Below, piece by piece: positions 1,840 to 61,812 of a stretch of DNA of 64,000 nt. The notes beneath the pieces were generated by a model. The model had not been told where the DNA came from, did not search any database, and saw nothing but the letters and a program-made list of their open reading frames with translations. Numbering within the stretch: the first letter of the stretch is position 1; each line of letters starts with the position of its first letter. Source of the DNA: Candidatus Dormiibacterota bacterium (lineage in GTDB: Bacteria > Chloroflexota > Dormibacteria > Dormibacterales > Dormibacteraceae). The translations under genes and the position numbers were made by a program. The stretch covers positions 264,411-328,410 of the forward strand of contig CAWBPD010000026.1 in NCBI GenBank assembly GCA_963790575.1. Reading direction: 5' to 3'.

Positions 1840-3189
1840 ATGGCCGTCATGGCCCGTCCCCTGGTTGCCCTGGTGGGGCGGCCCAACACCGGCAAGTCGA
1901 CCCTCTTCAACCGCCTCGTCGGCTGGCGCCAGGCGATCGTCGACAAGGAGCCGGGCCTGACCCGCGACCGCCTCTACGGCACCACCGACTGGGAAGGGCG
2001 GGAGATGACGGTGATCGACACCGCGGGCCTCGACGTGCTGGAGGGCCTGCGGTCTTCCGATCCGGCCGAGCAGACGCGACTGGCCATCGATGAGGCGGAC
2101 GTGATCGTGCTGCTGCTCGACGCTCGGGAGGGCCTGACTCCGATCGACCGCGACATCGGCGAGATGCTGCGACGCTCCGGACGCCCGGTGGTGGTCGGGG
2201 CCAACAAGGCCGACCACCATGGGACGCCGTATCTGCGGCACGAGCTGTACGAGCTGGGCCTCGAACCCGTCGTCTCTTTGTCCGGCCAGCACGGGATCGG
2301 CGTCGACGATCTGCTGGACGCCATCGTCGAGCGCCTGCCACCGGCTCCGCCCGAGGAGGAGGAGCCGGAGGAGGTCGCCCGGCTCGCGATCATGGGGCGC
2401 CCGAACGTCGGGAAGTCATCGCTGCTGAACCGGCTGCTGGGCGACGAGCGGGCGCTGGTCGCGGATACGCCGGGCACCACGCGTGACCCGGTCGACACCC
2501 AGGTCATGTTCGACGGCCTGCCCATGACGCTGATCGACACCGCCGGGATCCGCCGCCGGGCCGCCGCTCGGGACCGTGCCGAACACTTCTCCCTGCTGCG
2601 CGGGATCAACGCGATGGAGCGGTCCGACTGTGTGCTGCTGGTCCTCGACGGTCCCGAGGGCGTGCTGCGGCAGGACCAGCACGTCGCCTCCTACGCGCTG
2701 GAGGCGGGCAAGGGGCTGGTCGTGGTCGTCAACAAAGTGGACCTGCTGGAGGGAGAGGACAGCCAGCGGCGCCACTGGCAGGAGGTGGTCCAGCGCGAGC
2801 TGCGGTTCGCGCCGCACGTGCCGGTGGTGATCGCCTCGGCGCGCACCGGCCGCGGGACCCAGCAGATCCTGCCCACGGCGCTCGAGGTGGTGGGGCAGCG
2901 CCACGTCCGGGTGCCGACCAGCCGGCTCAACCAGGTGCTTCGGGAGGCCTTCCTGGAGCATCCCCCGCCGTCCTTCCGGAACAAGCGGTTGAACCTCAAG
3001 TACGCGACCCAGGCACGCTCGGAAACGCCGACCATGGTGCTGTTCGTGAACGACACCGAACTCCTGCACTTCTCCTACCGGCGCTACCTGGAGAACCGGC
3101 TGCGGGCTGAGTTCGGGTTCGCCGGCAACCCGCTGCGGCTGGTCCTGCGGGCGTCGGCGCGGGAGGGCGAGCGGGCGGGCCGCCACTGA
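1840..3189 (+). CDS. der: Ribosome-associated GTPase Der/EngA, with two tandem GTPase domains.
   Basis: The sequence from 1840 reads MAVMARPLVALVGRPNTGKSTLFNRL...DTAG. A second G domain follows (IMGRPNVGKSSLLNRLLG...DTAGIRRR...NKVDL), then a C-terminal KH-like domain. The upstream part of ORF 520..3189 is antisense to the debranching enzyme gene and was discarded. Confidence 0.9.
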   Translation: MAVMARPLVALVGRPNTGKSTLFNRLVGWRQAIVDKEPGLTRDRLYGTTDWEGREMTVIDTAGLDVLEGLRSSDPAEQTRLAIDEADVIVLLLDAREGLTPIDRDIGEMLRRSGRPVVVGANKADHHGTPYLRHELYELGLEPVVSLSGQHGIGVDDLLDAIVERLPPAPPEEEEPEEVARLAIMGRPNVGKSSLLNRLLGDERALVADTPGTTRDPVDTQVMFDGLPMTLIDTAGIRRRAAARDRAEHFSLLRGINAMERSDCVLLVLDGPEGVLRQDQHVASYALEAGKGLVVVVNKVDLLEGEDSQRRHWQEVVQRELRFAPHVPVVIASARTGRGTQQILPTALEVVGQRHVRVPTSRLNQVLREAFLEHPPPSFRNKRLNLKYATQARSETPTMVLFVNDTELLHFSYRRYLENRLRAEFGFAGNPLRLVLRASAREGERAGRH

Positions 3190-3195
3190 CCCCAG

Positions 3196-4125
3196 TCAGC
3201 CGAGGACCTGGGCGGTGCGGCGGGCCGTGGCCTCGAGGTTGGGCAGGTCCCTCCGCCAGGCGTTGTAGATGAGGTGCGAGACCCCGATGCGGACCTCGTA
3301 GCAGCGCAGGCGGAGGTCGAAGTCCGTGAGGTCGACCCCGGCGGCGCGCCAGTGGTCCAGCGCCCGCTCGCGCAGACCGGCGGCGGCGATACCGCGGTGC
3401 CAGGGACCCCAGAACGTGAACCAGGCGAGCTCGTAGAGGTGGTCGCCGTAGAGCGCGCACTGCCAGTCGATCAGCGCCGAGACGCGGGCCCCGGAGACGA
3501 ACACGTTGCGGTTGAGCAGGTCCGAGTGGAGGAGATCGCGCCGGTTCGGGCAGCGGCCGGACAGCGCCTCCAACTCATCCATGCCCCGGCGGAAGGTCCG
3601 GTCGGCTAGGTCGGAGGCGGCCAGGTCACCGCGCCAGGTGGAGCGGAAGGCCTCCGGCGTCCCACCGTCCACGGCGAGCAGGAACTCCCGCCAGTCGCGG
3701 TGGCGGCCGTTTCCCCGCGCGTCCCAAGGGCCGAGGCCGGTCGACCCTGAGGTGTCGGCCGTGCGCAGCGCGTCCAAGGTGGCCAGGACCGAAGGCGCCG
3801 CCGCCTCCATCCGCTCCGGCGGCAGATCCTCCAGGAAGTCACCGAAGGCACGCTCCGAGATCGCGTAGTAGGCGCCTTCCGCCTCGCCCACCTCGAAGAC
3901 AGCCGGGATCGGGAGCGCCGGCGACGCGAAACGGAGGGCCAGCAGGTCGACGTCGAAGGTGTGACGGTCGGGGTTGAACCGCACCACCAGCTCGCGTCCC
4001 GCGTGCCGGAACGCGTAGGCGCGCGACCACTCCCCCTGCGGGAGGTCGGGTCCCACCTCGACGTCGCCGCCAAACCGCCCGCGCAGGAAGCGCTGCGCGG
4101 CCGCGACATCCACCTGTTCACCCAA
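3196..4125 (-). CDS. Phosphotransferase enzyme family protein (aminoglycoside/antibiotic kinase APH-like).
   Basis: HSDLLNRNVFV...IDWQCALYGDHLYELA matches the APH/choline-kinase catalytic loop (HxDxxxxN) and Mg-binding (IDW..D) motifs. It is convergent with der. Confidence 0.75.
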   Translation of the reverse strand: MGEQVDVAAAQRFLRGRFGGDVEVGPDLPQGEWSRAYAFRHAGRELVVRFNPDRHTFDVDLLALRFASPALPIPAVFEVGEAEGAYYAISERAFGDFLEDLPPERMEAAAPSVLATLDALRTADTSGSTGLGPWDARGNGRHRDWREFLLAVDGGTPEAFRSTWRGDLAASDLADRTFRRGMDELEALSGRCPNRRDLLHSDLLNRNVFVSGARVSALIDWQCALYGDHLYELAWFTFWGPWHRGIAAAGLRERALDHWRAAGVDLTDFDLRLRCYEVRIGVSHLIYNAWRRDLPNLEATARRTAQVLG

Positions 4126-4270
4126 GAACCGTGCTATGGGCCCATCATGAGCCAGCTTTCACTCGAAGACGGCGAACGCGGTGGCGGCAACCAGGGCCGC
4201 GGCCAAGGGCCCACTGTCCGCACCGGGACCTCAAAACGCGCGGGGTAAGGTCTCAGTGCGGACAGTCGGC

Positions 4271-5977
4271 CCTTAACCCAGATTTTTCATGAAGGTTTCC
4301 GGAGGGTGCGCAGTCAAGGACGGAGAGGGCTGAGGTTGACATTCGCGCCCGACTGATGGGTTCGTCGCGTTGGGTTCATGGCTTTCGCCAGGGTCGAGAG
4401 TCCGGAGCGGATGCCGTCGGGGGCCCGGACATGGGGCGCGCGCGAGCTCGAGAGGCGTGCCGACCTCGCCCCCTGCGGTGATCGGTCGAGGCGGCCGGGT
4501 GGTGGTGGGCCGGGATCAGGTCTCCGGGATCTGTCGGATGCGGGTGAAGGCGGTGGCCAGCAACTCGCTCCAGCGCCAGTTGGACTGCAGGCGCAGGAGG
4601 AGGCGGCGGCCGCCATGGACCAGGCGCCCGGCGGTGTGCAGGAGACGGTAACGCAGGGTGCGCGGTTCCCAGAGTTGGGCCGCGCCGCGCAGCGCGATGC
4701 GGCGGAAGTGGCAGAGCAGGTCGTGAGCGGCAAGCACCAGTTCCAGCCAGATCTGGTTGGGCAGAAAGTCGCGGAAGGGGAAGGCGCGGAGCCCGGTCTC
4801 CTTGGCACAGCGGATCTGGTCCTCGCAGCGGGCGCGGGCACGATGGCGTGCCTCCAGGAGGGCGAGATCGGACCCCTCCTGGTCGGTGATGAAGACCTGG
4901 AAGCGCCAGCCCTGGTGGTCGGTGAAGGAGAGCTGGGCACCGGGGTGGGGACGCTCACGGCGGCAGATGGCGCGGGTGCCTGAGGGCCAGGCGGAGAGAT
5001 CGAGGTCGACGAGCTCGCAGACGTCCGCCCCCTCGCGCTCCTCGGCGTCCTGGCGGATGGCCGGGGTCCAGCTCTCCTCGGGAACACAGAGGATGGCCTC
5101 GCGGACGTCCTCGCGGAGATCGAAGCCGACCGAGAACTTGGTGTGCTCGCGAGCGCGCACCGCCTTCCAGGAATTTGTGGGTGGCGCCGGCGCTGTCGCA
5201 GCGCACCAGCAGGGGGGCGTCGCGCACCCACTCCGGGAGCTGCCGGCAGGCCAGCTCGAAGACCTCGAGGTGATCGGTGACGGTGTTGGAGCCGGCGCTG
5301 CCCGGGCGCAGGACGGCGGCCATCGCCTCGCCGGTGGCCTCCAGGAAGCCAGTCAAAGGATGGTAGCCGAAGCCGTGCTTGTAGTTGCCCGAGGCCTGCT
5401 CCTTTTCGGAATGCGCGGTGACCAGGGTGGCGTCGATGTCGAGGACCAGCAGCTCGGGTGTGCCGGCGCTCTGCCAGGCTCGCCGGCGCATCTGCCCTCG
5501 CGCCTCGCGCAGGCGCTCCAGGTCGGCTTCATGAAGGCGCTCGATGACGCGCCAGGCGGTCGGGACGGAGGCGACGTGGCCGAAGAGGTCGGGCTGATCG
5601 CGGAGCGTGGAGATATCGCTCAGACAGTCACCGCCGTCGGCAATGCTGACGACGAGATCGGTGAGGACGAGGCCTGGGTGATGGACGGCGCGAGGCGAAT
5701 GGCGCGGGTCGAGACCGTGGCAGAGGGCCTGCGTGTAGCCGAGTCGATCGGCCATTTCGCGGAGTGCGGCGGCGCCCGCGTGATTGACGAGCCCGGAGCC
5801 GTCGGCGCTGACTGCGAAGGAAGGGCGACGAATGCTGCTACGCTTCACCTGAAAGGTGCCTCCTCGGCTGGACGAATCGGAAGTGAGCAACCGCATTCTC
5901 CCAGTTCTGGACAGGCACCTTTCCTGCCTCTACGCTGCCCTCGCTCAGCGCCCCACGTGAAATATCGGGGTTAATGA
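4271..5977 (-). mobile_element. IS1380-family insertion sequence, about 1.7 kb, with imperfect terminal inverted repeats.
   Basis: The right end (4274..4296) reads TTAACCCAGATTTTTCATGAAGG. The reverse complement of the left end (5953..5974) reads TTAACCCCGATATTTCACGTGG, matching at about 17 of 22 positions. The 1701 bp length fits IS1380-family elements. The transposase gene fills the interior. The boundaries are uncertain by a few bp and no clear target-site duplication was seen. Confidence 0.7.
4516..5896 (-). pseudogene. IS1380-family DDE transposase, split by a -1/+1 frameshift near 5165.
   Basis: The N-terminal part (ORF 4955..5896) reads VSADGSGLVNHAGAAALRE...LVLDIDATLVTAHSEKEQASGNYKHGFGYHPL...CDSAGATHKFLE. 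The C-terminal part (ORF 4516..5160, a different frame) reads REHTKFSVGFDLRED...FITDQEGSDLALLEARHRARARCEDQIRCAKETGLRAFPFRDFLPNQIWLELVLAAHDLL. Together they make a single IS1380-type transposase of about 460 aa. The frame switches between THKFLE and AVRAREHTKF at 5160..5170. This may be a real frameshift or a sequencing error. Confidence 0.7.
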
Positions 5978-15501: not shown

Positions 15502-16185
15502 TCAAGCGGTGTTTTGCCGGCGCCGTCCGGGGAGCGACGACCAGCCGCTGCTGGTGAGCGCGTAGAAGACGGCGATCGCGAGATACAGGAACGCGGCCAG
15601 GTAGGGGGAGAGCAGGCCCAGCGCCGCGCAGCCCGCGTAGGCGAAGACCCCGACCCAGGCGCGGACCCCCTCCCGGCGGGCGAAGGGTGCGTCGAAGGGG
15701 GCGAGGAAGAGGTGGGGGACTCGCACCAGGTGCCTCCAGAGCCCCACCCAGGGGAGGGTCATGAGGACGCCCGTGAGCCCGTAGAGCACCGCCGCCACCC
15801 GCCCGTTCCACCCCGGATCGTGGAGATGGGCGGCGAGGATCGCGGTCGGGAAGGGGAGGAAGGCGACGAACAGGAGCAGGGAAAGGTTCCCCCACTGCAG
15901 GGTGCGGTCGGTGGCCCGCAGCCGCTCGAAGAAGGCGTGGTGGTTGAGCCAGATGATGCCGATGGTGAGGAAGCTGGTCAGGTAGGCCAGGTAGGCCGCC
16001 CACTGATGGACCAGCGTCAGAAAGAGGGATCCGTGGGCCGGCACGTCGGCGTGAAGGTCGAGCACCAGCAGCGTGATCGCGATCGCGAGGACGCCGTCGC
16101 TGAACGCCTCGGTGCGCGAGGTCGCGGAGAGGCGGAGGCCCTCGTCGGTGACGGCGGCCGGCCGGCTGGAGTCGTCGTCGCCCAT
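15502..16185 (-). CDS. DUF1211 / TMEM175-family membrane protein (putative K+ channel).
   Basis: The signature RTEAFSDGVLAIAITLLVLDL is present and a second repeat follows. There are multiple transmembrane helices. Confidence 0.7.
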   Translation of the reverse strand: MGDDDSSRPAAVTDEGLRLSATSRTEAFSDGVLAIAITLLVLDLHADVPAHGSLFLTLVHQWAAYLAYLTSFLTIGIIWLNHHAFFERLRATDRTLQWGNLSLLLFVAFLPFPTAILAAHLHDPGWNGRVAAVLYGLTGVLMTLPWVGLWRHLVRVPHLFLAPFDAPFARREGVRAWVGVFAYAGCAALGLLSPYLAAFLYLAIAVFYALTSSGWSSLPGRRRQNTA

Positions 16186-16861: not shown

Positions 16862-17180
16862 GACGGTGGCCATCGTCGCTCATCCGACGTTCACGAGGGC
16901 TGTTCTCAGGCTCTCGATCGCTCGGCGAAAGGAGGTCTATATCGCTTTGCGAGCCATCGAGCGTGGAGACGAGCTGCTCGAGCGAGACCAGGGCAACATC
17001 TACCATTTCGATCTCGCGTGGGAACCCGGTCGCCGGCTGCGGCTGCTCCTGGCCCGAGGTGTGAAGGGGGACCGGGAGGTCGCCCTGGCGGTCAACGCCT
17101 TCTGGATTGACGCTGGAGGCATGACCTCAGCCACCCGGATCACCGCAGCCAGGCGTGCCTGGGAAACGTGGGCCCCTTGA
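16854..17180 (+). CDS. Putative type II toxin of the RelE/ParE-superfamily (HigB/gp49-like), with a GTG start.
   Basis: This is about 109 aa (...IALRAIERGDELLERDQGNIYHFDLAWEPGRRLRLLLARGVKGDREVALAVNAFWID). It lies immediately upstream of, and overlaps by 13 nt, an XRE-HTH gene, which is the HigB-HigA gene order. The family assignment comes from pattern and context only. Confidence 0.45.
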   Translation: MDRTVAIVAHPTFTRAVLRLSIARRKEVYIALRAIERGDELLERDQGNIYHFDLAWEPGRRLRLLLARGVKGDREVALAVNAFWIDAGGMTSATRITAARRAWETWAP

Positions 17181-17548
17181 TCCGGATGCCGGCTTGCTCG
17201 TATAACATGCATGGTATGGCGGGGCTGAATCACGGGGCTGTGCCCGAGAGGGCCATCTCGCTGGATGAATTGATCGATCGTGAGAACGAGCAGCATCCAG
17301 GGCTACGGGACGCGGTTGAGCTCGGCGTCCAGCGGCGGCGCTTCCTGAGCAACCTGGCGAGCCTGCGTGAGGCGCATGGTTTCAGTCAGCAACAGGTCGC
17401 CGTGCGGATGGGCACAGGGCAGCCGGCGGTGGCCAGGCTCGAGAGTGGTGCCATCGATCCGAAATTCTCCACGCTTCAGAAGTACGCGGGCGCCATTGGT
17501 CTGCGGATCGAGCTGATGGACGGGGCGGCGCCTTCGAGAACGGATTAG
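17168..17548 (+). CDS. XRE-family HTH protein, putative HigA-like antitoxin.
   Basis: The HTH_XRE motif is LREAHGFSQQQVAVRMGTGQPAVARLESGAIDPKFSTLQKYAGAIGLRIEL. Confidence 0.7.
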   Translation: MGPLIRMPACSYNMHGMAGLNHGAVPERAISLDELIDRENEQHPGLRDAVELGVQRRRFLSNLASLREAHGFSQQQVAVRMGTGQPAVARLESGAIDPKFSTLQKYAGAIGLRIELMDGAAPSRTD

Positions 17549-17577
17549 CCTCTGGATCCGATTCACGATCCGCGCCG

Positions 17578-17703
17578 GCGTGCACCGACTGCCGGCACTC
17601 GGGCGGGGCAGGGTCACCGGGGTGCACCGACTGCCGGCACTCGGGTGGGGCAGGGGCACCGGCGTGCACCGAGTGCCGGCACTCGGGCGGGGCAGGGTCG
17701 GTC
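17578..17703. repeat. Three tandem units of about 41 bp each, carrying the palindromic core CCGA(G/C)TGCCGGCACTCGG. This is a REP-like element lying between convergent genes.
   Basis: The units read gtgcaccgactgccggcactcgggcggggcagggtcaccgg, ggtgcaccgactgccggcactcgggtggggcaggggcaccgg, and cgtgcaccgagtgccggcactcgggcggggcagggtcggtc. The same core recurs at 48150..48225. Confidence 0.8.
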
Positions 17704-18694
17704 AGTCGAGGTGGGAGGGCAGCCCGAAGGCTCCGAACGCGGTCCCATCAAGGAACGAGGTGATCTCGTGGATCTGCCCACCCCGGAACCCGAACACGTT
17801 GATCGACCACGCCCGATACGCGCCGGCGCCCTCGGGACGGAGGTAGAGGGCGGCAGCCGGCTGCCCGTTGGCGCTGGTCGAGAGGTGGCGCCAGGCCCCG
17901 CAGCTTCCGAGCGGGACCCGCACGGCGAAGTCCATCACCGCCGCCCGTCCGCGATACCAGTGTGGGAGCGGCGGCATCGACCAGGTGGCGTCCTCGGTCA
18001 GCAGCGAGGTCAGGAGGGCCGCGTCGCCTCGCTCGAGTGCGGCGCAGTAGCGGTTCACGACCTCGCGCAGGCGGGCGTCGTCCAGCCGCCGCGGCGTCGG
18101 CTGCAGGCTGTGCTCGGGGGCGCGGGCGGCGAGTGCTTTGCGCGCCCGCTCCAGCGCGCTGTTGACGGCGCCCACCGAGGTGCCCAGCATGGTGGCGATC
18201 TCGGCCGCTGAGAGCCCGACCACCTCGAAGAGGAGCAGCGCGGCACGCTGGTTCCCGGTCAGATGCTGGAGTGCGGCCACGAACGCGAGTTCCACCGCCT
18301 CTCGCTGTTCGTAGCGGGCTTCGGGGCTGAGCTGGCCCGCGGCCGCCTCAGCATCCGGGTAGGGGCCGAGCCAGGCGACTCCCTCCAGCGCGGTGTCGTC
18401 CACCACGGCGTGGTCGCTCGGAGGGCCCAGGTCGGCCGGCAGTACGTGCGGCTTGCGGGTCCTGATCGCGTCGAGGCAGGTGCGAGTGGCGACGGCGTAC
18501 AGCCAGGAGCGCCAGGATCCGCGCCCCTCGAACCGATGCCGGCCCCGCCAGGCGCGGAGCAACGTCTCCTGCACCGCGTCTTCGGCGTCGTGTATCGAGC
18601 CCAGCATCCGGTAGCAATGGGCACGCAACTGCGGCCGCAGGGGCTCCACCAGTCGCTCGAACACGGTCGCGTCGCCCAGGTCCGTTCCGACCAT
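17702..18694 (-). CDS. ECF41-type RNA polymerase sigma factor (SigJ-like) with a C-terminal SnoaL-like extension.
   Basis: Sigma region 2 is present (LLRAWRGRHRFEGRGSWRSWLYAVATRTCLD). Region 4 is present (LTGNQRAALLLFEVVGLSAAEIATMLGTSVGAVNSALERARKAL). A C-terminal extension of about 100 aa follows (YCAALERGDAALLTSLL...). The internal Met at 18694 was chosen as the start. Confidence 0.8.
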   Translation of the reverse strand: MVGTDLGDATVFERLVEPLRPQLRAHCYRMLGSIHDAEDAVQETLLRAWRGRHRFEGRGSWRSWLYAVATRTCLDAIRTRKPHVLPADLGPPSDHAVVDDTALEGVAWLGPYPDAEAAAGQLSPEARYEQREAVELAFVAALQHLTGNQRAALLLFEVVGLSAAEIATMLGTSVGAVNSALERARKALAARAPEHSLQPTPRRLDDARLREVVNRYCAALERGDAALLTSLLTEDATWSMPPLPHWYRGRAAVMDFAVRVPLGSCGAWRHLSTSANGQPAAALYLRPEGAGAYRAWSINVFGFRGGQIHEITSFLDGTAFGAFGLPSHLD

Positions 18695-18754
18695 CAGCGG
18701 GGAAAGTTCACTCACCGCGATGAGTATGGGGGCGCGGCGCCGTCTTGTCCTTCG

Positions 18755-19279
18755 ATGGCACTCCATGACCGTGACTACAGCTACGATCCCGAGCGGGCAG
18801 CGCTGCTCGAATTCCTCTCCGCGCAGCGGCAGAGCGTGCTCGCCATCCTTGACGGACTGGCGGAGGCGGCGTTGCGCATCTCCGTGATCCCTTCCGGCTG
18901 GACCCCGCTCGGTCTCGTCGAGCACCTGACGGGAGCCGAATTCTTCTGGATCCAGGTTGTCCTGCTCGGCACGCGTGGCCCCATCCCTCCCCTCGACGAC
19001 TCGGCCGAGGTCGGGGAGTGGGGTCCCTTCCTCACCGATCGCCCGGTTTCCGAGGTGATCGATGAATACCGCCGGCAGTGCGCCGAGAATGACGCTGCAC
19101 TCCGTGACCTACCACTCGAGACTGCTCCCCGCTTCCGGCCCCCGTGGGCGGGACCGGGGGAGGCCACCGACCTGCGGTGGATTCTGCTCCACCTGATCGA
19201 GGAGACGGCTCGGCACGCCGGTCACCTGGACATCGCCCGGGAACTGCTCGACGGGCGGACCGGCCTGGGTCCGCGGTAG
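18755..19279 (+). CDS. DinB-like / DUF664 (mycothiol-dependent transferase-like) four-helix-bundle protein.
   Basis: MALHDRDYSYDPERAALLEFLSAQRQSVLAILDGL...LEHLTGAEFFW...ARHAGHLDIARELLDG is typical of the DinB_2/DUF664 family. It is divergent from the ECF41 gene. Confidence 0.7.
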   Translation: MALHDRDYSYDPERAALLEFLSAQRQSVLAILDGLAEAALRISVIPSGWTPLGLVEHLTGAEFFWIQVVLLGTRGPIPPLDDSAEVGEWGPFLTDRPVSEVIDEYRRQCAENDAALRDLPLETAPRFRPPWAGPGEATDLRWILLHLIEETARHAGHLDIARELLDGRTGLGPR

Positions 19280-22510: not shown

Positions 22511-22515
22511 ATGTT

Positions 22516-23572
22516 ATGGGGTATCCATTTGAGTGCAGCGCCCCCAAGATCTAGTAATCGCTCCGGGGCGCGATGAGCTCGTAGTACGGATGAGGATCGG
22601 TGGCAACGGCCTGCTCCACGAGCCGGTACCAGAGCAGCCCGCGAGCCTTGGAGGCTCGACGGTTGAAGCGGAACGTGTACTCGTCGAGGTAGTACCCGAG
22701 CTGACGGGCGTCCAGGCCGTTCTGGATGGTTCCGGCGAGCCAGCGTTTGAGCAGCGACGCGACTCGGTGGACACCCGGCAGCAGTTCGTGCGCCAACGAG
22801 CCGGAGTGCTCGATGGTCCGCTGATCGACGGTCACTCCGACCTTCTCGCCGAAGTCCTGGTAAAGGGGGTCGCCATCCGTCTGCAGGATCGATCCCGGGG
22901 CCACGTTCGTTTTCGCGAAGCTCACCAGGTCGAGCTTTCGACGCGTCCGGTCGATGACCGACATCCGAATGCGACCCAGCCCTCGCATCTGAGCCGCGGC
23001 ATGCTCGACCGCGATCACGACCTCGGCCTTGTTGTAGTACCGCGGCGTATTCATTCCGGGCGTCCGGCCACCGATGAAGGTGCAGTCCATCTCGACCACT
23101 CGGCCTGGACCTCCGAGCTTCTCGCGGTCCGGACGCACCATGGCGCGGCGCAGTTTGTGCATCCAGGCCCAGGCGGTCTGGTACGAGCCGAACCCGAGGA
23201 CGCGCTGCAGACCCAGGGCCGAGACGCCGTTCTTCTGGGCGCAGATGAACCACATAGCCGCGAACCAGGTCGGGAGCGGCAGGTGCGAACGGTGGAAGAT
23301 CGTGCCCGCGGTTGCCGACGTCTTGCGCCCACAGCGCCGGCACATCCATCGGGGCCCGGCCACTTTCCAGGCGTCCCCGTGCCCACATGCCGGACACACG
23401 AAGCCAGCCTTCCACCGCACACGGGCCAGGAACTCGACGCAACTGCCCTCGTCCGGAAACCATCGCTCGAATGCCTGCCAGCCTCCGGGGTAGTCGCGAC
23501 CGGCTTGAGGGTGATCTTCATCTGCCACGAGCACAAGATACTGGGGCTACTGCATTCAAGCAGATACCCCAT
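22516..23572 (-). mobile_element. IS1595-family insertion sequence, copy 1 (1057 bp).
   Basis: The ends are ATGGGGTATCCATTTGAGTGCAG and CTGCATTCAAGCAGATACCCCAT, which are imperfect inverted repeats. It is flanked by ACATATGT(T). It contains transposase ORF 22551..23534 on the minus strand (327 aa, GTG start), which has an N-terminal zinc finger (FVCPACGHGDAWKVAGPRWMCRRCGRK) and an IS1595 DDE domain. Confidence 0.85.
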
Positions 23573-23580
23573 ACATATGT

Positions 23581-24637
23581 ATGGGGTATCCATTTGAGTG
23601 CAGCGCCCCCAAGATCTAGTAATCGCTCCGGGGCGCGATGAGCTCGTAGTACGGATGAGGATCGGTGGCAACGGCCTGCTCCACGAGCCGGTACCAGAGC
23701 AGCCCGCGAGCCTTGGAGGCTCGACGGTTGAAGCGGAACGTGTACTCGTCGAGGTAGTACCCGAGCTGACGGGCGTCCAGGCCGTTCTGGATGGTTCCGG
23801 CGAGCCAGCGTTTGAGCAGCGACGCGACTCGGTGGACACCCGGCAGCAGTTCGTGCGCCAACGAGCCGGAGTGCTCGATGGTCCGCTGATCGACGGTCAC
23901 TCCGACCTTCTCGCCGAAGTCCTGGTAAAGGGGGTCGCCATCCGTCTGCAGGATCGATCCCGGGGCCACGTTCGTTTTCGCGAAGCTCACCAGGTCGAGC
24001 TTTCGACGCGTCCGGTCGATGACCGACATCCGAATGCGACCCAGCCCTCGCATCTGAGCCGCGGCATGCTCGACCGCGATCACGACCTCGGCCTTGTTGT
24101 AGTACCGCGGCGTATTCATTCCGGGCGTCCGGCCACCGATGAAGGTGCAGTCCATCTCGACCACTCGGCCTGGACCTCCGAGCTTCTCGCGGTCCGGACG
24201 CACCATGGCGCGGCGCAGTTTGTGCATCCAGGCCCAGGCGGTCTGGTACGAGCCGAACCCGAGGACGCGCTGCAGACCCAGGGCCGAGACGCCGTTCTTC
24301 TGGGCGCAGATGAACCACATAGCCGCGAACCAGGTCGGGAGCGGCAGGTGCGAACGGTGGAAGATCGTGCCCGCGGTTGCCGACGTCTTGCGCCCACAGC
24401 GCCGGCACATCCATCGGGGCCCGGCCACTTTCCAGGCGTCCCCGTGCCCACATGCCGGACACACGAAGCCAGCCTTCCACCGCACACGGGCCAGGAACTC
24501 GACGCAACTGCCCTCGTCCGGAAACCATCGCTCGAATGCCTGCCAGCCTCCGGGGTAGTCGCGACCGGCTTGAGGGTGATCTTCATCTGCCACGAGCACA
24601 AGATACTGGGGCTACTGCATTCAAGCAGATACCCCAT
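23581..24637 (-). mobile_element. IS1595-family insertion sequence, copy 2. It is 100% identical to copy 1 and lies in direct tandem with it.
   Basis: It is base-for-base identical to 22516..23572 and contains transposase ORF 23616..24599 (minus strand). It is separated from copy 1 by the 8 bp ACATATGT and followed by ACATATGTT. Confidence 0.85.
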
Positions 24638-24731
24638 ACATATGTTCCATTCTGGCCACAGGCGGCGATCCGCCGCAACCCTCCGGACCCGCGCCGGCGC
24701 CGCAACCCTGCCGCCCGGTTAGCATCCGGCG

Positions 24732-25311: not shown

Positions 25312-26235
25312 GTGAGCGACTCCCGCCGGCTCCGTCTCCTCTGTGTCCACGCCCATCCCGACGACGAGTCGAGCAAGGGGGCGGCGACCATGGCCAAATA
25401 CGCCCGCGAGGGCGTCCGGGTCATGGTCGTCACCTGCACCGGAGGGGAGCGGGGGAGCATCCTCAACCCGGCGCTGGAGGGCGACGAGACGCTGGCCGCC
25501 AACATGGGGGAGGTACGGCGTCGCGAGATGGAGCGGGCCGCGGCGATCCTCGGCGTCGAACATCGCTGGCTCGGCTTCGTCGATTCCGGTTTCACCCGCG
25601 ATGGCCCCGAGCCGGTGGCGCTGCCCGAGGGCTGCTTCGCGCTGCAGCCGCTGGAGGTGACGGCGGGGGCGTTGGTGCGGATCCTCCGCGAGTTCCGGCC
25701 GCAGGTCATGACGACCTACGACGAGAGCGGCGGCTACCCCCATCCCGACCACCTGATGACCCACCAGGTCTCGATGGCGGCGCTGAGGGCGGCCGCCGAC
25801 GCCGAGCAGTACCCGGACGCCGGGGAGCCCTGGCAGGTCTCGAAGCTCTACTACAACGGCGGGATGTGGCGGGGTGGCCTGCTCAAGATCCACCAGGCGA
25901 TGCTCGACCGCGGCCTCGAATCGCCGTTCGCGGAGATGCTGGAGTGGTTCGCGAAGATGCCGGTGCGTCTGCGGCCGCCCACTACCACCTACATCGACTG
26001 CGCCCGGTACTTCCCGATTCGCGACGCCGCCCTCAAGGCGCACGAGAGCCAGGTCGACCCCGAGGGTCGGTGGTTCAAGGCGCCGATGGACCTGCAACAG
26101 GAGATGGCACCCAACGAGGAGTTCACGCTCGCCGGCACCACCATCCCCGCCACGCTCCCGGAGACCGACCTGTTCGCCGGTCTGCGGGACCCCTCTCAGG
26201 CCTCAGCGGAGCGCGAGGCGGTCCAGGCTTCATAG
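25312..26235 (+). CDS. mca: Mycothiol S-conjugate amidase / LmbE-like (PIG-L) zinc deacetylase.
   Basis: LCVHAHPDDESSKGAATMAKYAREGVRVMVVTCTGGERGSILNP closely matches the N-terminus of the Mca/MshB family, including the HxDDE zinc motif. Confidence 0.8.
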   Translation: MSDSRRLRLLCVHAHPDDESSKGAATMAKYAREGVRVMVVTCTGGERGSILNPALEGDETLAANMGEVRRREMERAAAILGVEHRWLGFVDSGFTRDGPEPVALPEGCFALQPLEVTAGALVRILREFRPQVMTTYDESGGYPHPDHLMTHQVSMAALRAAADAEQYPDAGEPWQVSKLYYNGGMWRGGLLKIHQAMLDRGLESPFAEMLEWFAKMPVRLRPPTTTYIDCARYFPIRDAALKAHESQVDPEGRWFKAPMDLQQEMAPNEEFTLAGTTIPATLPETDLFAGLRDPSQASAEREAVQAS

Positions 26236-26777
26236 GCGCGACGCCAGTCGGCACGCGTCACGTCGAACAGCTGCTCGTCGATGTACCGGCCACCCTTGAC
26301 GTCCACCCACTTGCGCACACCCGCCCTCCGGTAACCCTGCTTCAGGAGCGCCGCCGCCGAGCGAGTGTTGGTCTCCGCCACCTCGGAGCGCAGCACGTGG
26401 AGCCCGATCCTCTCGAAGCAGTACCCGAGCAAGAGGTGCTTGGCCTCGGTGCCGTACCCCTGGCCCCGGATGACGGCCGGGCCCACGCCGCTGAACGTTT
26501 CTCCGTTCCGGTGCACCCAGTCGAGGTCGAACACGCCGACCACGCCGACGAGGCTGTCGTCCTGGCGGAGGCAGACGGCGAACGCGATGCTGTCCGGCGG
26601 GCGCGTCCGGTACTCCTGCTCGATCCCGGCCACGCGTTGGAGAGGGCTCGTCGGGACCCGCTCGCGGTACATGAACGTGTCTTCCTCGACCGCATCAAGC
26701 CACGCCAGTCGGTCCGCGTCGGAGAGTTCGAGCGCGCGCAGGTACACACGCTCGCCGATCAGGAGCGGATTACGCAT
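26196..26777 (-). CDS. GNAT-family N-acetyltransferase (RimJ/RimL-like), copy 1.
   Basis: 193 aa (...GVVGVFDLDWVHRNGETFSGVGPAVIRGQGYGTEAKHLLLGYCFERIGLHVLRSEVAETNTRSAALL). Confidence 0.8.
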   Translation of the reverse strand: MRNPLLIGERVYLRALELSDADRLAWLDAVEEDTFMYRERVPTSPLQRVAGIEQEYRTRPPDSIAFAVCLRQDDSLVGVVGVFDLDWVHRNGETFSGVGPAVIRGQGYGTEAKHLLLGYCFERIGLHVLRSEVAETNTRSAAALLKQGYRRAGVRKWVDVKGGRYIDEQLFDVTRADWRRAYEAWTASRSAEA

Positions 26778-27351
26778 CGCGGACCGAGGAGGCTCGCCCG
26801 GACTCGTGAGCCCGGCGCCAGTCGTCGCGCGTGAGGTCGAAGAGGTGCTCGTCGATGTACCGGCCGCCCTTCACGTCGTGCCACTTGCGCGCGCCCGCCC
26901 TCCGGTATCCCTGCTTCAGCAGCGCCGCCGCTGAGCGGGTGTTGGTCTCTGCCACCTCGGAGCGAAGGACGTGGAGGCCGATGCGATCGAAGCAGTACCC
27001 CAGCAGCAGGTGCTTGGCTTCGGTGCCGTACCCCTGGCCGCGGATCCCGGCCGGGCCCAGCCAGCTGAACGTCTCTCCGGTCCGGTGCAGCCAGTCGATG
27101 CTGTCCACACCCACCATGCCCAGCAGGGTGTCATCCTCGCGACGGCAGACCGCGAAGGCGATCTCGTGCGGCGGTCGCACTTTGTAGGCACCCTGAGTCC
27201 GGGCGAGATGATCGAGCGGGCTGGTGGGGAAGCGCTCGCGGTACATGAACGTGTCTTCCTCGACCGCGTCCAGCCGGGCCAAGAGCTCGGCGTCGGAGGT
27301 CTCCACCGCGCGCAGGTAGATCCGCTCGGCGACCAGGACCGGGTTACGCAT
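26770..27351 (-). CDS. GNAT-family N-acetyltransferase (RimJ/RimL-like), copy 2. It is a tandem paralog of copy 1.
   Basis: 193 aa, about 70% identical to copy 1. It overlaps copy 1 by 8 nt. Confidence 0.8.
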   Translation of the reverse strand: MRNPVLVAERIYLRAVETSDAELLARLDAVEEDTFMYRERFPTSPLDHLARTQGAYKVRPPHEIAFAVCRREDDTLLGMVGVDSIDWLHRTGETFSWLGPAGIRGQGYGTEAKHLLLGYCFDRIGLHVLRSEVAETNTRSAAALLKQGYRRAGARKWHDVKGGRYIDEHLFDLTRDDWRRAHESGRASSVRDA

Positions 27352-27886
27352 CGCGCACCACCCAGTTCGGGTTCAAAGCCTCGTAGACGAGGGCGTCGAC
27401 GCGGCCACCGGGCCGCAGGAACCACTCCCGCAGCGTCGCGTGCTGCTGCATCCCGATCTCTTCCGCTGCCCGCACCGTCTCCACCTGGTCGGCGGGAAGC
27501 GTCACACCCACCACCATCGCCTCCCACTCGTCGCGGAGCCAGCGGACCGCGATCCGGAGCGCCGCGGCACGCAGCGAATCCTGGTCCGGTTCCCAGCCGG
27601 CCATCGAGAACTCGAGACGGCACCGCCGCACCTCCGAGCCCCAGGAGACCCGGATCCCGCCCACCACCGTGTCGCCCTCCGCTCGCACGATGATCAGGCG
27701 CAGGTTGGGACGCTCCCAGAAGGGCGCCTTGTGCTCGTCCTTGAGGACCGCCTCCGCCGCCGGGGCGTTGGTGGGGAAGGTCGCGTCGAGCCAGGCCGCC
27801 GCGTGCTCCTTGTCGCTCTCGACCGGCGCGCGCAAGTAGACCATGGGGCCGCTCAGGTAGATCGCGCGCAGGCTGGATGGTTCCAC
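27344..27886 (-). CDS. GNAT-family acetyltransferase, a third and more divergent copy.
   Basis: 180 aa (...TVVGGIRVSWGSEVRRCRLEFSMAGWEPDQDSLRAAALRIAVRWL). It overlaps copy 2 by 8 nt. Confidence 0.65.
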   Translation of the reverse strand: MEPSSLRAIYLSGPMVYLRAPVESDKEHAAAWLDATFPTNAPAAEAVLKDEHKAPFWERPNLRLIIVRAEGDTVVGGIRVSWGSEVRRCRLEFSMAGWEPDQDSLRAAALRIAVRWLRDEWEAMVVGVTLPADQVETVRAAEEIGMQQHATLREWFLRPGGRVDALVYEALNPNWVVRDA

Positions 27887-28379: not shown

Positions 28380-29404
28380 GCGGCGCCGTTCGACTCGTCC
28401 CGCCGCGCCCAGTCGAGCAGCGGCGAGATGTCGAACGCCGCTTCGTCGATCCCGCGGTGGAGGTCGCCGAGCGCGGCCACCCGGGCCGGCATGGTCGCGA
28501 TCGTGAAGTCGTCGGGCGCGATATCGTCGATCTCTTCCCAGCGAACCGGCGACGACACCGTGGCCCGCGGGTTGCCGCGAACGGAGTAGGCGGCCGCCAT
28601 GGTGTGATCGCGCGCGTTCTGGTTGTAGTCCAGGAACAGCTTGCGCGGGTCGCGATCCCGACGCCACCAGCTGGTCGTGACCGCGGCCGGGGCCCGCCGC
28701 TCGACCTCCCGAGCGAAGGCGAGCGCGGCGCGCCGCACGTCCGCGAAGGGGTACTCGGGCCGGATGCGCACGTAGACGTGCATCCCGTTGCCACCCGACG
28801 TTTTGGGCCAGCCCCTGGCGCCAAGCTCGAGCAGGACCTGGTGGACCACGTGGGCGGCGCGCCGCACGGTTGCGAACGTACATTCGGGCATCGGGTCGAG
28901 ATCGATGCGCCACTCGTCGGGTCGCTCGGTGTCGGCCCGGCGAACGTTCCAGGGGTGGAACTCGATGGTCGACATCTGGACCGCCCAGAGGACAGCCGCG
29001 GGCTCGGTGACGCAGAGCTCGTCGGCGGTGCGGCCGAAGCGCGGAAACCGGATCTGGACCGTCTCGACCCAGGGGGGCGCGCCCGCCGGCAGTCGCTTCT
29101 GGTGGACCTTGTCGCCGCCGGTCCCGGCCGGATACCGGTGCAGCATGGTCGGCCGCTCGAACAGCGCCCGCGTGATCTCGCCGGCGACGCTCAGGTAGTA
29201 GCGCGCCAGATCCAGCTTGGTTTCGCCGCGATCGGCGAAGTAGACGCGATCGGGATTGGTGAGCCGGATCGTGCGCGTGCCCACCGCCAGCTCGACCGAC
29301 GGAACGGAGCCCGCCATGCCCACGAGGCTACCCGCGGCGCCGAAGCGTACCAGTGTCCGCAGTAGAACGCCAAACCCTGCCGGTTGACGTCCGAGTGCGG
29401 ACAC
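28376..29404 (-). CDS. LigD-type NHEJ primase-polymerase domain protein (standalone PolDom). The start is uncertain and may be 29404 or about 29317.
   Basis: TIRLTNPDRVYFADRGETKLDLARYYLSVAGEI...IEFHPWN...KTSGGNGMHVYVRI match LigD polymerase (AEP primase) domain motifs. No ligase or Ku gene lies adjacent in this window. Confidence 0.8.
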   Translation of the reverse strand: MSALGRQPAGFGVLLRTLVRFGAAGSLVGMAGSVPSVELAVGTRTIRLTNPDRVYFADRGETKLDLARYYLSVAGEITRALFERPTMLHRYPAGTGGDKVHQKRLPAGAPPWVETVQIRFPRFGRTADELCVTEPAAVLWAVQMSTIEFHPWNVRRADTERPDEWRIDLDPMPECTFATVRRAAHVVHQVLLELGARGWPKTSGGNGMHVYVRIRPEYPFADVRRAALAFAREVERRAPAAVTTSWWRRDRDPRKLFLDYNQNARDHTMAAAYSVRGNPRATVSSPVRWEEIDDIAPDDFTIATMPARVAALGDLHRGIDEAAFDISPLLDWARRDESNGAA

Positions 29405-29424
29405 TCGGCCCTCTTTCGATGGCT

Positions 29425-29456
29425 ATGCTATCGTAAAGGGTCATTATCGATAGCAT
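29425..29456. promoter_or_regulatory. AT-rich inverted repeat ATGCTATCG-N14-CGATAGCAT, lying between the divergent LigD-Pol and P-loop kinase genes.
   Basis: Perfect 9 bp arms sit in the only low-GC patch of this intergenic region (29405..29491). This is operator-like. Confidence 0.5.
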
Positions 29457-29491: not shown

Positions 29492-30028
29492 ATGCCTGAG
29501 CGCATCCTGCTGTACGGGGTCACGGGCTCCGGCAAGACGACGTACGCGGCCCGGCTGGCCGACCAGACGGCCCTGCCCTGGTACTCCGTCGACGACCTCA
29601 CCTGGGATCGGAACTGGGTGCCGGTCCCGCCGGAGGAACAACGAAGACGGATCGCTGAGATCTGCGGTCGCGAGCGGTGGATCCTCGACACCGCCTACGG
29701 CCAGTGGCTCGACATTCCGCTGGCTCGGGCCCAGCTGATCGTCGCGCTCGACTTTCCGCGCTGGGTGTCCCTCACTCGCCTGCTGCGGCGGACCGCGGCG
29801 CGCATCGTTGACCGCCGCCAGATCTGCAATGGCAATCGAGAAAGCCTGCGGACCGCGCTCTCGCGCGACTCCATCATCGTCTGGCACTTCCGTTCGTTCC
29901 CGCGCAAGCGGGCCCGGATCCGCGCCTGGTCAGCCGACCCCGGCGGCCCGGAGGTGGCACGCTTCACCTCGCCGCGGAGGCTCGAGGGGTGGCTCGACGC
30001 GATCGCCCCTACGCTTCCGGCGGAGTAG
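29492..30028 (+). CDS. P-loop NTPase of the adenylate-kinase-like / topology-modulation (FlaR-like) family.
   Basis: The Walker A motif is MPERILLYGVTGSGKTTYAARLA, and a Walker B-like ILDTAYG is present. The start was chosen at the internal Met. Confidence 0.65.
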   Translation: MPERILLYGVTGSGKTTYAARLADQTALPWYSVDDLTWDRNWVPVPPEEQRRRIAEICGRERWILDTAYGQWLDIPLARAQLIVALDFPRWVSLTRLLRRTAARIVDRRQICNGNRESLRTALSRDSIIVWHFRSFPRKRARIRAWSADPGGPEVARFTSPRRLEGWLDAIAPTLPAE

Positions 30029-37199: not shown

Positions 37200-37345
37200 A
37201 TGAGTTATTCCGAATTGCCGACGTCGGCAACTGGAGTTCGGCGGTGGAAGGCCTGGGCTTCAACCATCGCGAGCACGGGGTCAACTCCCACCTGAGACCA
37301 CTGATGGTTTGGATAAACTCATCTAGCAGGAGCCGCCCGATCGAC

Positions 37346-38812: not shown

Positions 38813-38942
38813 GGGCCCGTTGATGCACCAGCGGGTCCTAACACCCTGGTATAGCCCCCCGTTGGTGCACCAGCGGGGCACTCGGGGCGGGGATGGCACC
38901 CGTTGGTGCACCTCCGGGTCTTAACAACCCCTCTTGACACGG
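38813..38942. promoter_or_regulatory. Three direct repeats of about 41 bp, each carrying the palindrome TGGTGCACCA (or a near-palindrome). They lie upstream of the sigma-ogt operon.
   Basis: The units read cccgttgATGCACCAgcgggtcctaacaccc, cccgttgGTGCACCAgcggggcactcgggg, and cccgttgGTGCACCTccgggtcttaacaaccc. The spacing equals four helical turns. A TTGACA hexamer on the plus strand lies at 38931..38936, facing the FTR1 gene. Confidence 0.6.
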
Positions 38943-39069
38943 CCCCTCCGAAATGCCACTTTGGGCCCGCCCCCCTTGGGAGGGTGGGGGCAGGGTGTGT
39001 GAGAGGGGCTGGGCTCTCGGGCGTTAGCCGCAACTAACTCGACGGTTAACGTAAGCTACGCAAGAGCAC

Positions 39070-47269: not shown

Positions 47270-48127
47270 GTGCGCTACGGGTTCGTCGTCCCGGCCGCCG
47301 ACGCCGCCGAGTTCGCCGAGGTGGCGGCGCTTGGTGAAGAGCATGGCTGGGATGCCGTGTTCACCTGGGAGTCGGTGTTCGGGGTCGACGCCTGGGTGAC
47401 GTTGGGAGCCGCCGCGGTGCGCACCCGGAGGATCCGGCTGGGCACGCTTCTGACCCCCGCCTCGCGCATTCGGCCCTGGGACCTGGCCTCGCGGGTCGGG
47501 ACCGTCGACCGGCTCAGCGGCGGACGCGTGATCCTGAGCGTCGGCCTCGGGGCGCTGAACGAGAACTGGCTCGCCTTCGAGCCCGACGAAGGGCGCCGGA
47601 CGCGGGCACAGAAGCTGGACGAGTCGCTCGCCATCTTCGCGGCTCTCTGCGCCGGCGGCCCCCTTACGTTCGAAGGCAGGCACTACTCCGCCCACCTCCC
47701 GGCCGAGGTCAGCCCGGCGGCGCCCCCTCCGACCGTGCAGCGGCCCCACCCGCCGGTATGGGTCGTCGGACTGCGCGTGCCGGACCATGCCCGCCAGCGA
47801 TCGCTGGAGCGCGCCGCGCGCTGGAACGGACTGCTCCCGGCCAGCGTCGACGGGCGGGGGAGGTGGCAGACGCTCACCCCCGCCACGCTGCGCGAGATCG
47901 CCGGCGAGGTGAGCCGCCTGCGCGAGGCGGAGGGCCGTGCTGCCGAGCCCTACGACGTGGTGGTGGAGGGAGACACCTGGGGCGGCTTCATTCAGCGCCG
48001 GGAGCGGCCGGCCGACTTCGAGGACGCCGGCGCCACCTGGTGGATCGAGAGCTGGTGGGACCTGCCGCGCGATGCCAAGGGCCAGGCGGAGGTGCGCCGT
48101 CGCGTGGAGGTAGGTCCTAGAAGCTGA
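47270..48127 (+). CDS. LLM-class F420/flavin-dependent oxidoreductase (short variant).
   Basis: FAEVAALGEEHGWDAVFTWES...RIRLGTLLTPASRIRPW... indicates a luciferase-like TIM barrel. Confidence 0.7.
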   Translation: MRYGFVVPAADAAEFAEVAALGEEHGWDAVFTWESVFGVDAWVTLGAAAVRTRRIRLGTLLTPASRIRPWDLASRVGTVDRLSGGRVILSVGLGALNENWLAFEPDEGRRTRAQKLDESLAIFAALCAGGPLTFEGRHYSAHLPAEVSPAAPPPTVQRPHPPVWVVGLRVPDHARQRSLERAARWNGLLPASVDGRGRWQTLTPATLREIAGEVSRLREAEGRAAEPYDVVVEGDTWGGFIQRRERPADFEDAGATWWIESWWDLPRDAKGQAEVRRRVEVGPRS

Positions 48128-48149: not shown

Positions 48150-48225
48150 CCCCGAATGCCGGCACTCAGGTCCTCTGGCGGCCGCCCCAACCCCCGAGTG
48201 CCGGCACTCGGGTGGCATTCGGGCA
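48150..48225. repeat. A second locus of the palindromic REP-like element: GAATGCCGGCACTCAGG ... CCGAGTGCCGGCACTCGGGTGGCATTCGGG.
   Basis: It carries the same CCGAGTGCCGGCACTCGG core as the triple repeat at 17578..17703. It likewise sits between convergent 3' ends (the LLM oxidoreductase and dapD). Confidence 0.75.
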
Positions 48226-48233
48226 CCAGCAGG

Positions 48234-49049
48234 TCAGGTGGCGACGCCCAGTTCCCGCAGCTGGTCGTTGAGCGTGAGCTTGCGATCGGTGGCGTCGCTC
48301 CGCCACCCGATGATGAGCCCGCACGCCAGCTGGTACTCGCCCGCCGGGAAGGTGCGCGTACGTGTCCCCGGGACCACGATCGCGCCTGGCGGGACCTCAC
48401 CCCGGTGCTCGACCGGAGAGGGTCCGGTGACGTCGATGACGGGAGTGGAGCCGGTGAGGACGACGTTGGCGCCCAGCACCGCCCATTCCCCCACCACCAC
48501 GCCTTCCGTGACCACCGCGCGCGAACCAATGAAACAGCCGTCCTCGATGACCACCGGCCGCGCCTGCACGGGCTCCAGCACGCCCCCGATGCCCACCCCG
48601 CCTGCCAGGTGGACGCCGCTGCCGACCTGCGCGCAGGACCCGACGGTGGCCCAGGTGTCGACCATGGTGCCGGCGCCCACGCGGGCTCCGACGTTGACGT
48701 AGGACGGCATCAAGATCACGCCGCGTTCCAAGTGTGAGCCGTAGCGCGCCACCGCCGGGGGCACCACCCGCACGCCGGCGCCCTCGTAGTCGTGCTTGAG
48801 CGGGATGCGGTCCCGGTACTCGAAGGGCCCGGTCTCGATGGTCTCGATCTCGTAGAGCTTGAAGTAGAGGAGGATCGCCTTCTTCACCCATTCGTTGGCC
48901 ACCCACCGGCCAGCATGCTTCTGGGCGCTGCGCAGGCTCCCGTCATCGAGGCCGGCGATCGTCCACTCCACCGCCTCCTTGTCCTGCCCGCCCTGGGCAT
49001 AGGCGGCTTCGATACGAGCCTGGAGTTCGTCCGGGTCGGGGTCAGTCAT
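48234..49049 (-). CDS. dapD: 2,3,4,5-tetrahydropyridine-2,6-dicarboxylate N-succinyltransferase.
   Basis: Left-handed beta-helix hexapeptide repeats are present (VGAGTMVDTWATVGSCAQVGSGVHLAGGVGIGGVLEP...), with a DapD-like N-terminal domain. Confidence 0.8.
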   Translation of the reverse strand: MTDPDPDELQARIEAAYAQGGQDKEAVEWTIAGLDDGSLRSAQKHAGRWVANEWVKKAILLYFKLYEIETIETGPFEYRDRIPLKHDYEGAGVRVVPPAVARYGSHLERGVILMPSYVNVGARVGAGTMVDTWATVGSCAQVGSGVHLAGGVGIGGVLEPVQARPVVIEDGCFIGSRAVVTEGVVVGEWAVLGANVVLTGSTPVIDVTGPSPVEHRGEVPPGAIVVPGTRTRTFPAGEYQLACGLIIGWRSDATDRKLTLNDQLRELGVAT

Positions 49050-61733: not shown

Positions 61734-61812
61734 TGCCTCCTTTTAGGAACGATCGATAGTCTTAGGAACGATCGATAGTCGGCTCACAATTTACGTGAGC
61801 CGACTAACGATG
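61734..61812. promoter_or_regulatory. A MarR-type operator/promoter region. It has a tandem 19 bp direct repeat, the perfect inverted repeat GTCGGCTCAC-N7-GTGAGCCGAC, and a minus-strand TTGACA-N17-TAAATT promoter.
   Basis: The direct repeat ttaggaacgatcgatagtc occurs twice (61734..61771). The inverted repeat is at 61769..61795. On the minus strand, TTGACA (61810..61805) and TAAATT (61787..61782) overlap the inverted repeat and would drive the LLM gene. Confidence 0.6.

Follow-up and report, generated by a model that had tools for sequence, protein, structure and literature searches.

A dispersed palindromic repeat family with a 42-bp geometry in Dormibacterota

Dormibacterota carry a real, dispersed family of palindromic repeats, described here from a 64,000-nucleotide (64-kb) stretch of a Candidatus Dormiibacterota chromosome, hereafter the window, and from related DNA. 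The family behaves like the REP and BIME elements of E. coli and is a new example of such elements with its own sequences, not a new kind of element. The main idea of an earlier, sequence-only reading of the window, that of a dispersed REP/BIME-like palindromic family with a sequence of its own, therefore holds. We think it probable that the family is a REP/BIME/REPIN-like, non-coding component of the Dormibacterota chromosome, in which a hairpin module has been copied into the 3′ ends of transcripts. The proposed module would comprise two, sometimes three, near-perfect palindromes of 18–22 bp with centers 42 bp apart, separated by a fast-evolving 24-bp spacer. It is copied among intergenic sites and turns over at them. 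At mRNA 3′ ends it may act as RNA, as its position and predicted folding suggest.

Results

Two convergent gene gaps are occupied by 42-bp palindromic units

The window is an ordinary chromosomal region. A Pfam scan of about 58 ORFs recovered Der, pyruvate dehydrogenase, NadE, LexA, DapD, HflX, MiaA, MutL, MutS, MiaB, YmdB and RNase Y, and the nearest named relatives of the window DapD are from Candidatus Dormibacterota MAGs. Locus a (17575-17700; this and all other repeat loci of the window are given without a strand) consists of three tandem 42-bp units and fills the gap between two convergent genes. On one side is an XRE-family HTH gene (HTH_3; 17168-17548, plus strand), whose stop codon lies 36 bp before the first core, and on the other a gene for an ECF sigma factor with a C-terminal SnoaL_2 domain (ECF41-like; 17702-18925, minus strand, start codon uncertain), whose stop lies 15 bp past the last core. 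The triple tandem repeat proposed for this site by the sequence-only reading was recovered both by Tandem Repeats Finder (period 42, 3.0 copies, 91% matches, score 222 over 17575-17699) and by core matches. The 18-bp palindromic cores of that proposal are also present, at 17585-17602, 17627-17644 and 17669-17686. The units, put at about 41 bp, measure 42 bp, and of the supposedly perfect palindromes only the third, CCGAGTGCCGGCACTCGG at 17669, is perfect; the cores at 17585 and 17627 both read CCGACTGCCGGCACTCGG, an imperfect palindrome with one C-C mismatch.

Locus b (48152-48230) is a doublet located between the stop codons of a luciferase-like monooxygenase gene (LLM; 47270-48127, plus strand), 24 bp before the first core, and of dapD, encoding tetrahydrodipicolinate N-succinyltransferase (48234-49049, minus strand), 22 bp after the second core. 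Two cores had correctly been placed in this gap, with a spacer of 23 bp. The cores (48152-48169 and 48194-48211) are separated by 24 bp (48170-48193), so that the period is again 42, as in locus a. The core at 48152, CCGAATGCCGGCACTCAG, has two mismatches, while that at 48194 is perfect. An inverted orientation, which had been claimed for the pair, cannot be established for a core that equals its own reverse complement, and flank homology places the second unit direct to locus a: 37 nt of it, comprising the core and 3′ flank, have 81% identity to locus a units in direct orientation, and homology to a locus a unit extends through the 3′ flank to 48230. Gene calls with Pfam domains confirmed that both sites are convergent gene gaps. 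Six core matches with at most three mismatches occur in the window against 0.27 expected, a number that none of 100 shuffles reached.

Further loci in the window

In total the window contains five to six loci with about 13 units in its 64 kb, all of them intergenic. Three related loci, at 29349-29408, 4210-4269 and 38817-38917, are additional to those of the sequence-only reading. Locus c (29349-29408) is a variant doublet in which a degenerate arm, ACCAGTGTCCGCAGTAGA (29349-29366), is paired with CCGAGTGCGGACACTCGG (29391-29408), with mutually inverted arms and centers 42 bp apart. It sits in the divergent gap between a LigD-polymerase-like gene (minus strand; a sequence-based call with no Pfam hit) and a gene for a P-loop protein (plus strand). 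The same variant forms the inverted pair of locus d (4207-4272), with CCCACTGTCCGCACCGGG at 4210-4227 and CTCAGTGCGGACAGTCGG at 4252-4269, again offset by 42 bp, with a DDE transposase fragment on one side and an APH gene on the other, both on the minus strand. Locus e (38817-38917), which separates a divergent ECF sigma gene from FTR1, has three copies of CCGTTGGTGCACCAGCGG, starting at 38817, 38859 and 38900 with periods of 42 and 41. Its middle unit is homologous to a locus a unit, with a local alignment score of 36 against 17.4 ± 2.9 for shuffles. At the mutL-miaA junction, locus f (51309-51356) pairs CCGTTTCCCGGGAAGCGG with CCTTCCCCGGGAAACGG; as the spacing differs, with centers 30 bp apart, its membership is tentative. 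Near-palindromes of 18 bp are only modestly enriched in the window overall (32 against 22 ± 4.5 in shuffles), so that only specific families stand out.

Two neighboring features of these loci were also recorded. Beside locus c, an A+T-rich inverted repeat at 29425-29456, ATGCTATCG-N14-CGATAGCAT, lies upstream of the P-loop gene at 29492 and is possibly an operator or promoter element. Beside locus d, at 4519-5352, is a DDE_Tnp_1_4 transposase gene fragment, in which only the C-terminal part of the profile was matched.

The family extends beyond the source genome

The sequence-only reading took the repeat to be genome-specific. However, the same core with the 42-bp geometry is found in Dormibacterota MAGs and in soil metagenome contigs. 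Among 596 Gb of species-representative genomes, the perfect 18-mer has nine matches, approximately the number expected by chance. Three of the nine have a second core 42 bp away (43 bp in one case), and these are from L005 and L007, both Dormibacterota MAGs, and L001, labelled Chloroflexi; the other six, lone matches in unrelated phyla, were rejected. A metagenome scan with the pattern CCGASTGCCGGCASTCGG yielded 96 stretches, about 21 of which have a partner at exactly ±42 bp, all with 64–73% G+C. The paired stretches include several copies of the same locus from different samples. In MAGs and soil metagenome contigs together, the family has about 20 further loci. The remainder are singletons and one conserved coding sequence with a GGDEF-type reading. 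To the latter belong seven matches with a partner at 111 bp, which were set aside as chance matches because they lie inside an apparent GGDEF-type gene (...AECRHSD...).

For the ClpP encoded beside one metagenome locus, the nearest named relatives are from Dormibacteraeota, and in L113, an unbiased relative found via that ClpP, a doublet fills the 72-bp gap between two convergent genes. The main core appears to be low-copy in most genomes, since one metagenome contig of 1.1 Mb has only two stretches matching the core pattern and L001, L005 and L007 have a single perfect core per MAG. L007 has three loci within 8 kb. REP and BIME elements number tens to thousands of dispersed copies in a genome.

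Several core variants carry symmetric changes in both arms. In the variant cores CCGTTTGCCGGCAAACGG, CCGTTTCTGCAGAAACGG and CGGTTTCGCGCGAAACCG, both the symmetry and the 42-bp period are kept. The same geometry is seen with CCGTTTGCCGGCAAACGG in L031 and L099, with GCGTTTCTGCACAGTCCG paired with CGGTTTCTGCAGAAACGG in L010, with an inverted pair straight after the dapD stop codon in L112 and with CCCGGTTTCGCGCGAAACCGGG, which is present twice in L007. As these variants share the 42-bp geometry, the core first noted is one branch of a larger set of the form [18–22 bp palindrome]-N24-[palindrome]. The literature searched held no account of this motif, of Dormibacterota palindromes or of their repeats.

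Two of the related loci have unusual surroundings. In L033 (7040-7125) and L054, a family doublet is directly beside an apparent tRNA gene, whose sequence ends in CCA. In L032 (metagenome contig Ga0207684_10000001), a minus-strand gene at 3005-4103 is flanked on both sides by palindrome modules with identical spacers. Its product, judged by eye, is AbiEi/DUF559-type endonuclease-like, and the ORF continues in frame through three 42-bp units, of 14 codons each, before its stop codon.

The module is copied and turns over between relatives

Spacing is the most constant property of the family. In the window and family loci together, 36 core pairs were counted at offsets of 41–43 bp, against zero to two at every control offset between 30 and 62 bp; the five pairs at offsets of 83–85 bp come from the outer cores of triplets. 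Different loci have unrelated flanks. Spacers are often unrelated too, yet some are homologous between loci (15–17 of 24 positions identical, against a shuffled maximum of 14), which identifies the doublet as the repeated unit, and L032a and L032b, 1 kb apart, have identical spacers. The triplets of locus a and of L026/L032 have near-identical spacers, which points to tandem duplication of a 42-bp unit. The sequence-only reading had stated that a motif confined to one place in the genome, or shared only as part of a larger duplicated segment, would speak against a repeat family. What we found instead is unrelated flanks and about 20 further loci in other contigs.

Comparison of orthologous sites revealed gain or loss of the module. 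The stop-to-stop gap between dapD and LLM is 23 bp in L111, where DapD is 88% identical and the gene order is the same, compared with 106 bp in the window. The gap between clpP and an MBL-fold gene is 22 bp in L114-L123 but 103 bp in L031, which has a doublet there. Alignment likewise showed that L012 lacks the locus e array (38817) in its orthologous region, and the sequence downstream of dapD has differing hairpins, or none, across relatives. The module has thus been copied to many unrelated intergenic sites, and at orthologous sites in close relatives it may be present or absent.

Most loci follow stop codons

Most loci are positioned 3–30 bp from a stop codon, in gaps that are convergent or that are co-directional and ahead of the next ribosome-binding site. 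Members had been described as always lying between convergent genes; they are also found in co-directional gaps (L005, L007, L031b, L053, L106 and window 4210), and three more occupy promoter regions of divergent genes (window 29349, window 38817 and L032b). The position of the family matches the description of REPs by Di Nocera et al. 2013 (PMC3733652), in which convergent REPs are less than 20 bp from both ORF ends and dimers are common, with spacers of 20–100 bp that have similar lengths and may differ in sequence.

An unrelated palindrome, ATTGCCGACGTCGGCAAC, is present at 37214-37231 in the window, 15 bp past the stop codon of an MFS transporter gene in a convergent gap with an Ada gene. 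Other convergent gene ends in the source genome therefore carry different hairpins.

Core symmetry, folding and protein binding

In an analysis of 49 units, pairing was found in 82% of cells, and both sides have changed in seven pairs. The covariation score of these units is 0.143 compared to 0.100 ± 0.013 for shuffles, none of 500 of which reached it. Core palindromic symmetry is thus kept by paired, compensatory changes. Position 5/14 of the core is the exception, being unpaired in 19 of 49 units.

At minimum energy, a doublet is predicted to form a single long hairpin by pairing of core 1 with core 2 (−27 to −48 kcal/mol). The z-scores of the whole arrays are modest, −1.7 and −2.8, against the G+C-rich background. 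A single-stranded doublet, in mRNA or in DNA during replication, may fold in this way or as separate core hairpins. Because doublets follow stop codons by 3–30 bp, they would end up in transcript 3′ ends, and there a hairpin would be expected to block 3′ exonucleases or read-through. REPs of E. coli have been shown to act as a barrier to 3′ exonucleases or read-through. At loci a and b, for which the sequence-only reading had suggested a putative role as bidirectional terminators or mRNA stabilizers, we found no U-tract and no terminator-like site, the G+C-rich hairpin being devoid of a T run, and mismatches show no strand bias of G·T versus A·C, the signature expected of wobble pairing. These two results leave action at the RNA level without support. 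In addition, the self-complementarity of six of seven core variants includes the central four bases, which leaves no loop. REPs seldom have such loop-less cores, and sites recognized as double-stranded DNA have them more typically, which counts against a hairpin module as the explanation.

The palindromes could instead be double-stranded binding sites for a dimeric host protein, that is, binding platforms that have spread, rather than RNA hairpins. The binder could be a nucleoid, roadblock or boundary protein or a domesticated transposase. We regard this reading as rather unlikely, even though several details of the cores would fit it. Self-complementarity at the central four bases is needless for a hairpin loop. 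In L007, core positions 8 and 11 change together (CGCGCG to CACGTG), the uncompensated changes at position 5/14 would be expected of independent half-sites, and the wobble pairs are without strand bias. The geometry also fits, as two loop-less perfect palindromes with 42-bp centers are maintained across at least five core sequences and unrelated spacers, and 42 bp corresponds to four turns of 10.5 bp, which would place two dimers on the same face of the helix. Against these points, presence or absence in close relatives and homologous spacers at unrelated loci indicate copying of whole modules and not conservation of binding sites. The cores (CCGAGTG..., CCGTTTC... and CCGTTGG...) differ too much to be bound by a single protein. 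Spacing is not invariant either, with periods of 41 and 43 bp in some members and 30 bp in one possible member, and no candidate protein is linked to the loci. There is a similarly small chance that the selected feature is the geometry itself, as a double-stranded docking platform for a dedicated dimer-of-dimers protein in Dormibacterota. Such a protein could be a mobilizing enzyme other than RAYT or a host factor marking gene ends, and the mechanism, if true, would be one not described for REPs.

A second alternative is that each doublet represents a structured RNA, as a small RNA gene or a 3′-UTR regulatory motif, present in several copies and under selection at the RNA level. Stable predicted folds, positions right after stop codons and compensatory changes, which occur in the cores and also in a spacer stem of two L007 doublets, are all compatible with such RNAs, yet we consider them very unlikely. 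Rfam gave no match at the gathering score, and a permissive scan produced nothing beyond sub-threshold, miRNA-like hairpin noise. Spacers taken by themselves are no more stable than shuffled sequence (mean z = 0.01), wobble pairing could not rescue 28 of 55 mismatches, loci a and b have no promoter-like sites beside them and the elements are not conserved at orthologous positions. With no U-tract, Rfam match, strand bias or spacer structure, constraint at the RNA level is not separated from constraint at the DNA level. The reading that we prefer, a copied hairpin module of REP/BIME/REPIN type, draws on the 42-bp geometry and the copying of the doublet, its place after stop codons, the symmetry of the cores and the predicted long hairpins.

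Tags, transposases and mobility

We looked for signs of the machinery that copies the module. No invariant GTAG or CGTC tag is present in the flanks of 49 units, and ACGT precedes the core only in a subset. The Pfam scan of about 58 ORFs found no RAYT (Y1) transposase in the 64-kb window, and there is none among the genes called in loci found by protein look-up. A tblastn search with E. coli RayT returned nothing below E = 0.3. The link to a RAYT transposase and a terminal tag, by which REPs are defined, was thus sought in this DNA without being found.

That the elements are classical MITEs, for which a DDE transposase would act on short terminal inverted repeats and generate target-site duplications, is highly improbable. 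Inverted-pair doublets (window 4210, window 29349 and L112) and insertion/empty-site polymorphisms are what MITEs would show, and the window has transposase genes, namely two IS1595 copies and the DDE_Tnp_1_4 fragment. However, no target-site duplication was found, the longest substring shared by the flanks averaging 3.0 nt compared with 2.99 nt in controls, and in many doublets the two copies are direct, not inverted. IS1595 was rejected as a parent element, as its terminal repeats, TATGGGGTATC, are unrelated to the cores.

The two IS1595-family copies, at 22515-24644, are head-to-tail and 100% identical, each 1065 bp long, and abut at a CATATG junction. Both have TATGGGGTATC as terminal repeats and encode a transposase with Zn_ribbon_IS1595 and DDE_Tnp_IS1595 domains. 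Their arrangement suggests a tandem insertion that is very recent, or else a dimer intermediate.

It is hardly credible that the pattern is a chance palindrome, a segmental duplication or a degenerate mini-CRISPR array, and this reading is refuted by core excess over shuffles, unrelated flanks and strict 42-bp pairing: although the bare 18-mer occurs at chance frequency across all genomes and an 18-bp repeat with a constant 24-bp spacer is superficially CRISPR-like, the 18-bp repeat is outside the 23–55 bp of CRISPR repeats, the arrays have at most three units, spacers within an array are duplicates and no cas genes were found in the window by Pfam.

Discussion

Relation to known repeat systems

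The family shares several properties with REP/BIME elements, being a short extragenic palindrome located downstream of ORFs and forming dimers with fixed linkers. It does not conform to an intrinsic terminator, a CRISPR array, a DDE-type MITE or an Rfam family, and it has no general GTAG or CGTC tag. A place among the REP families mobilized by RAYT would be tentative. Like the family, E. coli REP/BIME elements are short extragenic palindromes that form clusters with fixed-length linkers. They too are found mostly past gene 3′ ends, in convergent or co-directional gaps, vary in copy number at a site and are absent from the same site in relatives. The family differs in its unrelated sequence, its perfect, loop-less cores of 18–22 bp and its phylum. 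It is without a GTAG tag, and the DNA examined yielded no RAYT gene. Its period is a uniform 42 bp, whereas BIMEs are alternating Y and Z units with several linker types.

In the REPINs of Pseudomonas fluorescens SBW25, which are moved by RAYT, the repeated unit is a doublet and not a single palindrome, as it is here. Several family doublets, at window 4210, window 29349 and L112, are also inverted pairs, which can fold only as one long hairpin. In contrast to REPINs, many family doublets are direct or cannot be oriented, the core being its own reverse complement, and tandem triplets occur; some doublets fit a direct arrangement better, and self-complementary cores have no defined orientation. 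No RAYT gene flanked by family repeats was found in the DNA examined.

Another comparison is with the uptake sequences DUS of Neisseria and USS of Haemophilus, which are 10–12 bp long, non-palindromic, present in more than 1000 copies per genome and tied to natural competence. Paired DUS/USS resemble the family as conserved short sequences that occur in pairs downstream of genes. They differ in abundance, as the three MAGs with a perfect family core have just one such core each.

A further parallel is the CGTC-tagged REP super-family (Di Nocera et al. 2013, PMC3733652), which shares with the family stems of 8–9 bp, a predominance of dimers, a location near ORF 3′ ends and the lack of a known dedicated transposase. 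The subset of family units preceded by ACGT has a CGTC that overlaps the first C of the core. The tag is, however, confined to a minority of family units, the first stem positions are G/C instead of an A/T pair and the center is self-complementary instead of a 4–5 nt loop (PMC3733652). The CGTC families described are mainly from Alphaproteobacteria, and none from Dormibacterota was reported (PMC3733652).

Dormibacterota are abundant in soil and have no cultured representatives, and a REP-like family in them extends the phylogenetic range of such elements. Within the window, the family explains two odd intergenic regions, and the same explanation covers at least three more. As the elements vary between close relatives, they could be used as markers in strain typing and in the assembly and curation of MAGs. 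Perfect palindromes with one spacing and several cores also provide a clean test case for distinguishing among RNA hairpins, protein-binding DNA and selfish DNA.

Other observations in the window

Several features of the window are independent of the repeat family. Two adjacent GNAT acetyltransferase genes at 26199-27372, with 79–84% DNA identity and a 574-bp period, are a tandem gene duplication. At 61743-61780, a perfect tandem repeat of two copies of TTAGGAACGATCGATAGTC, unusually A+T-rich for the source genome, is located in the gap where a luciferase-like monooxygenase gene and a MarR gene diverge, and probably serves as the MarR operator. Upstream of the FTR1 iron permease gene, GTTAGCCGCAACTAAC (39023-39038) presumably resembles an IdeR/DtxR-type iron box, and it is kept in L012, around 15590-15605, as GTTAGCTGCCACTAAC.
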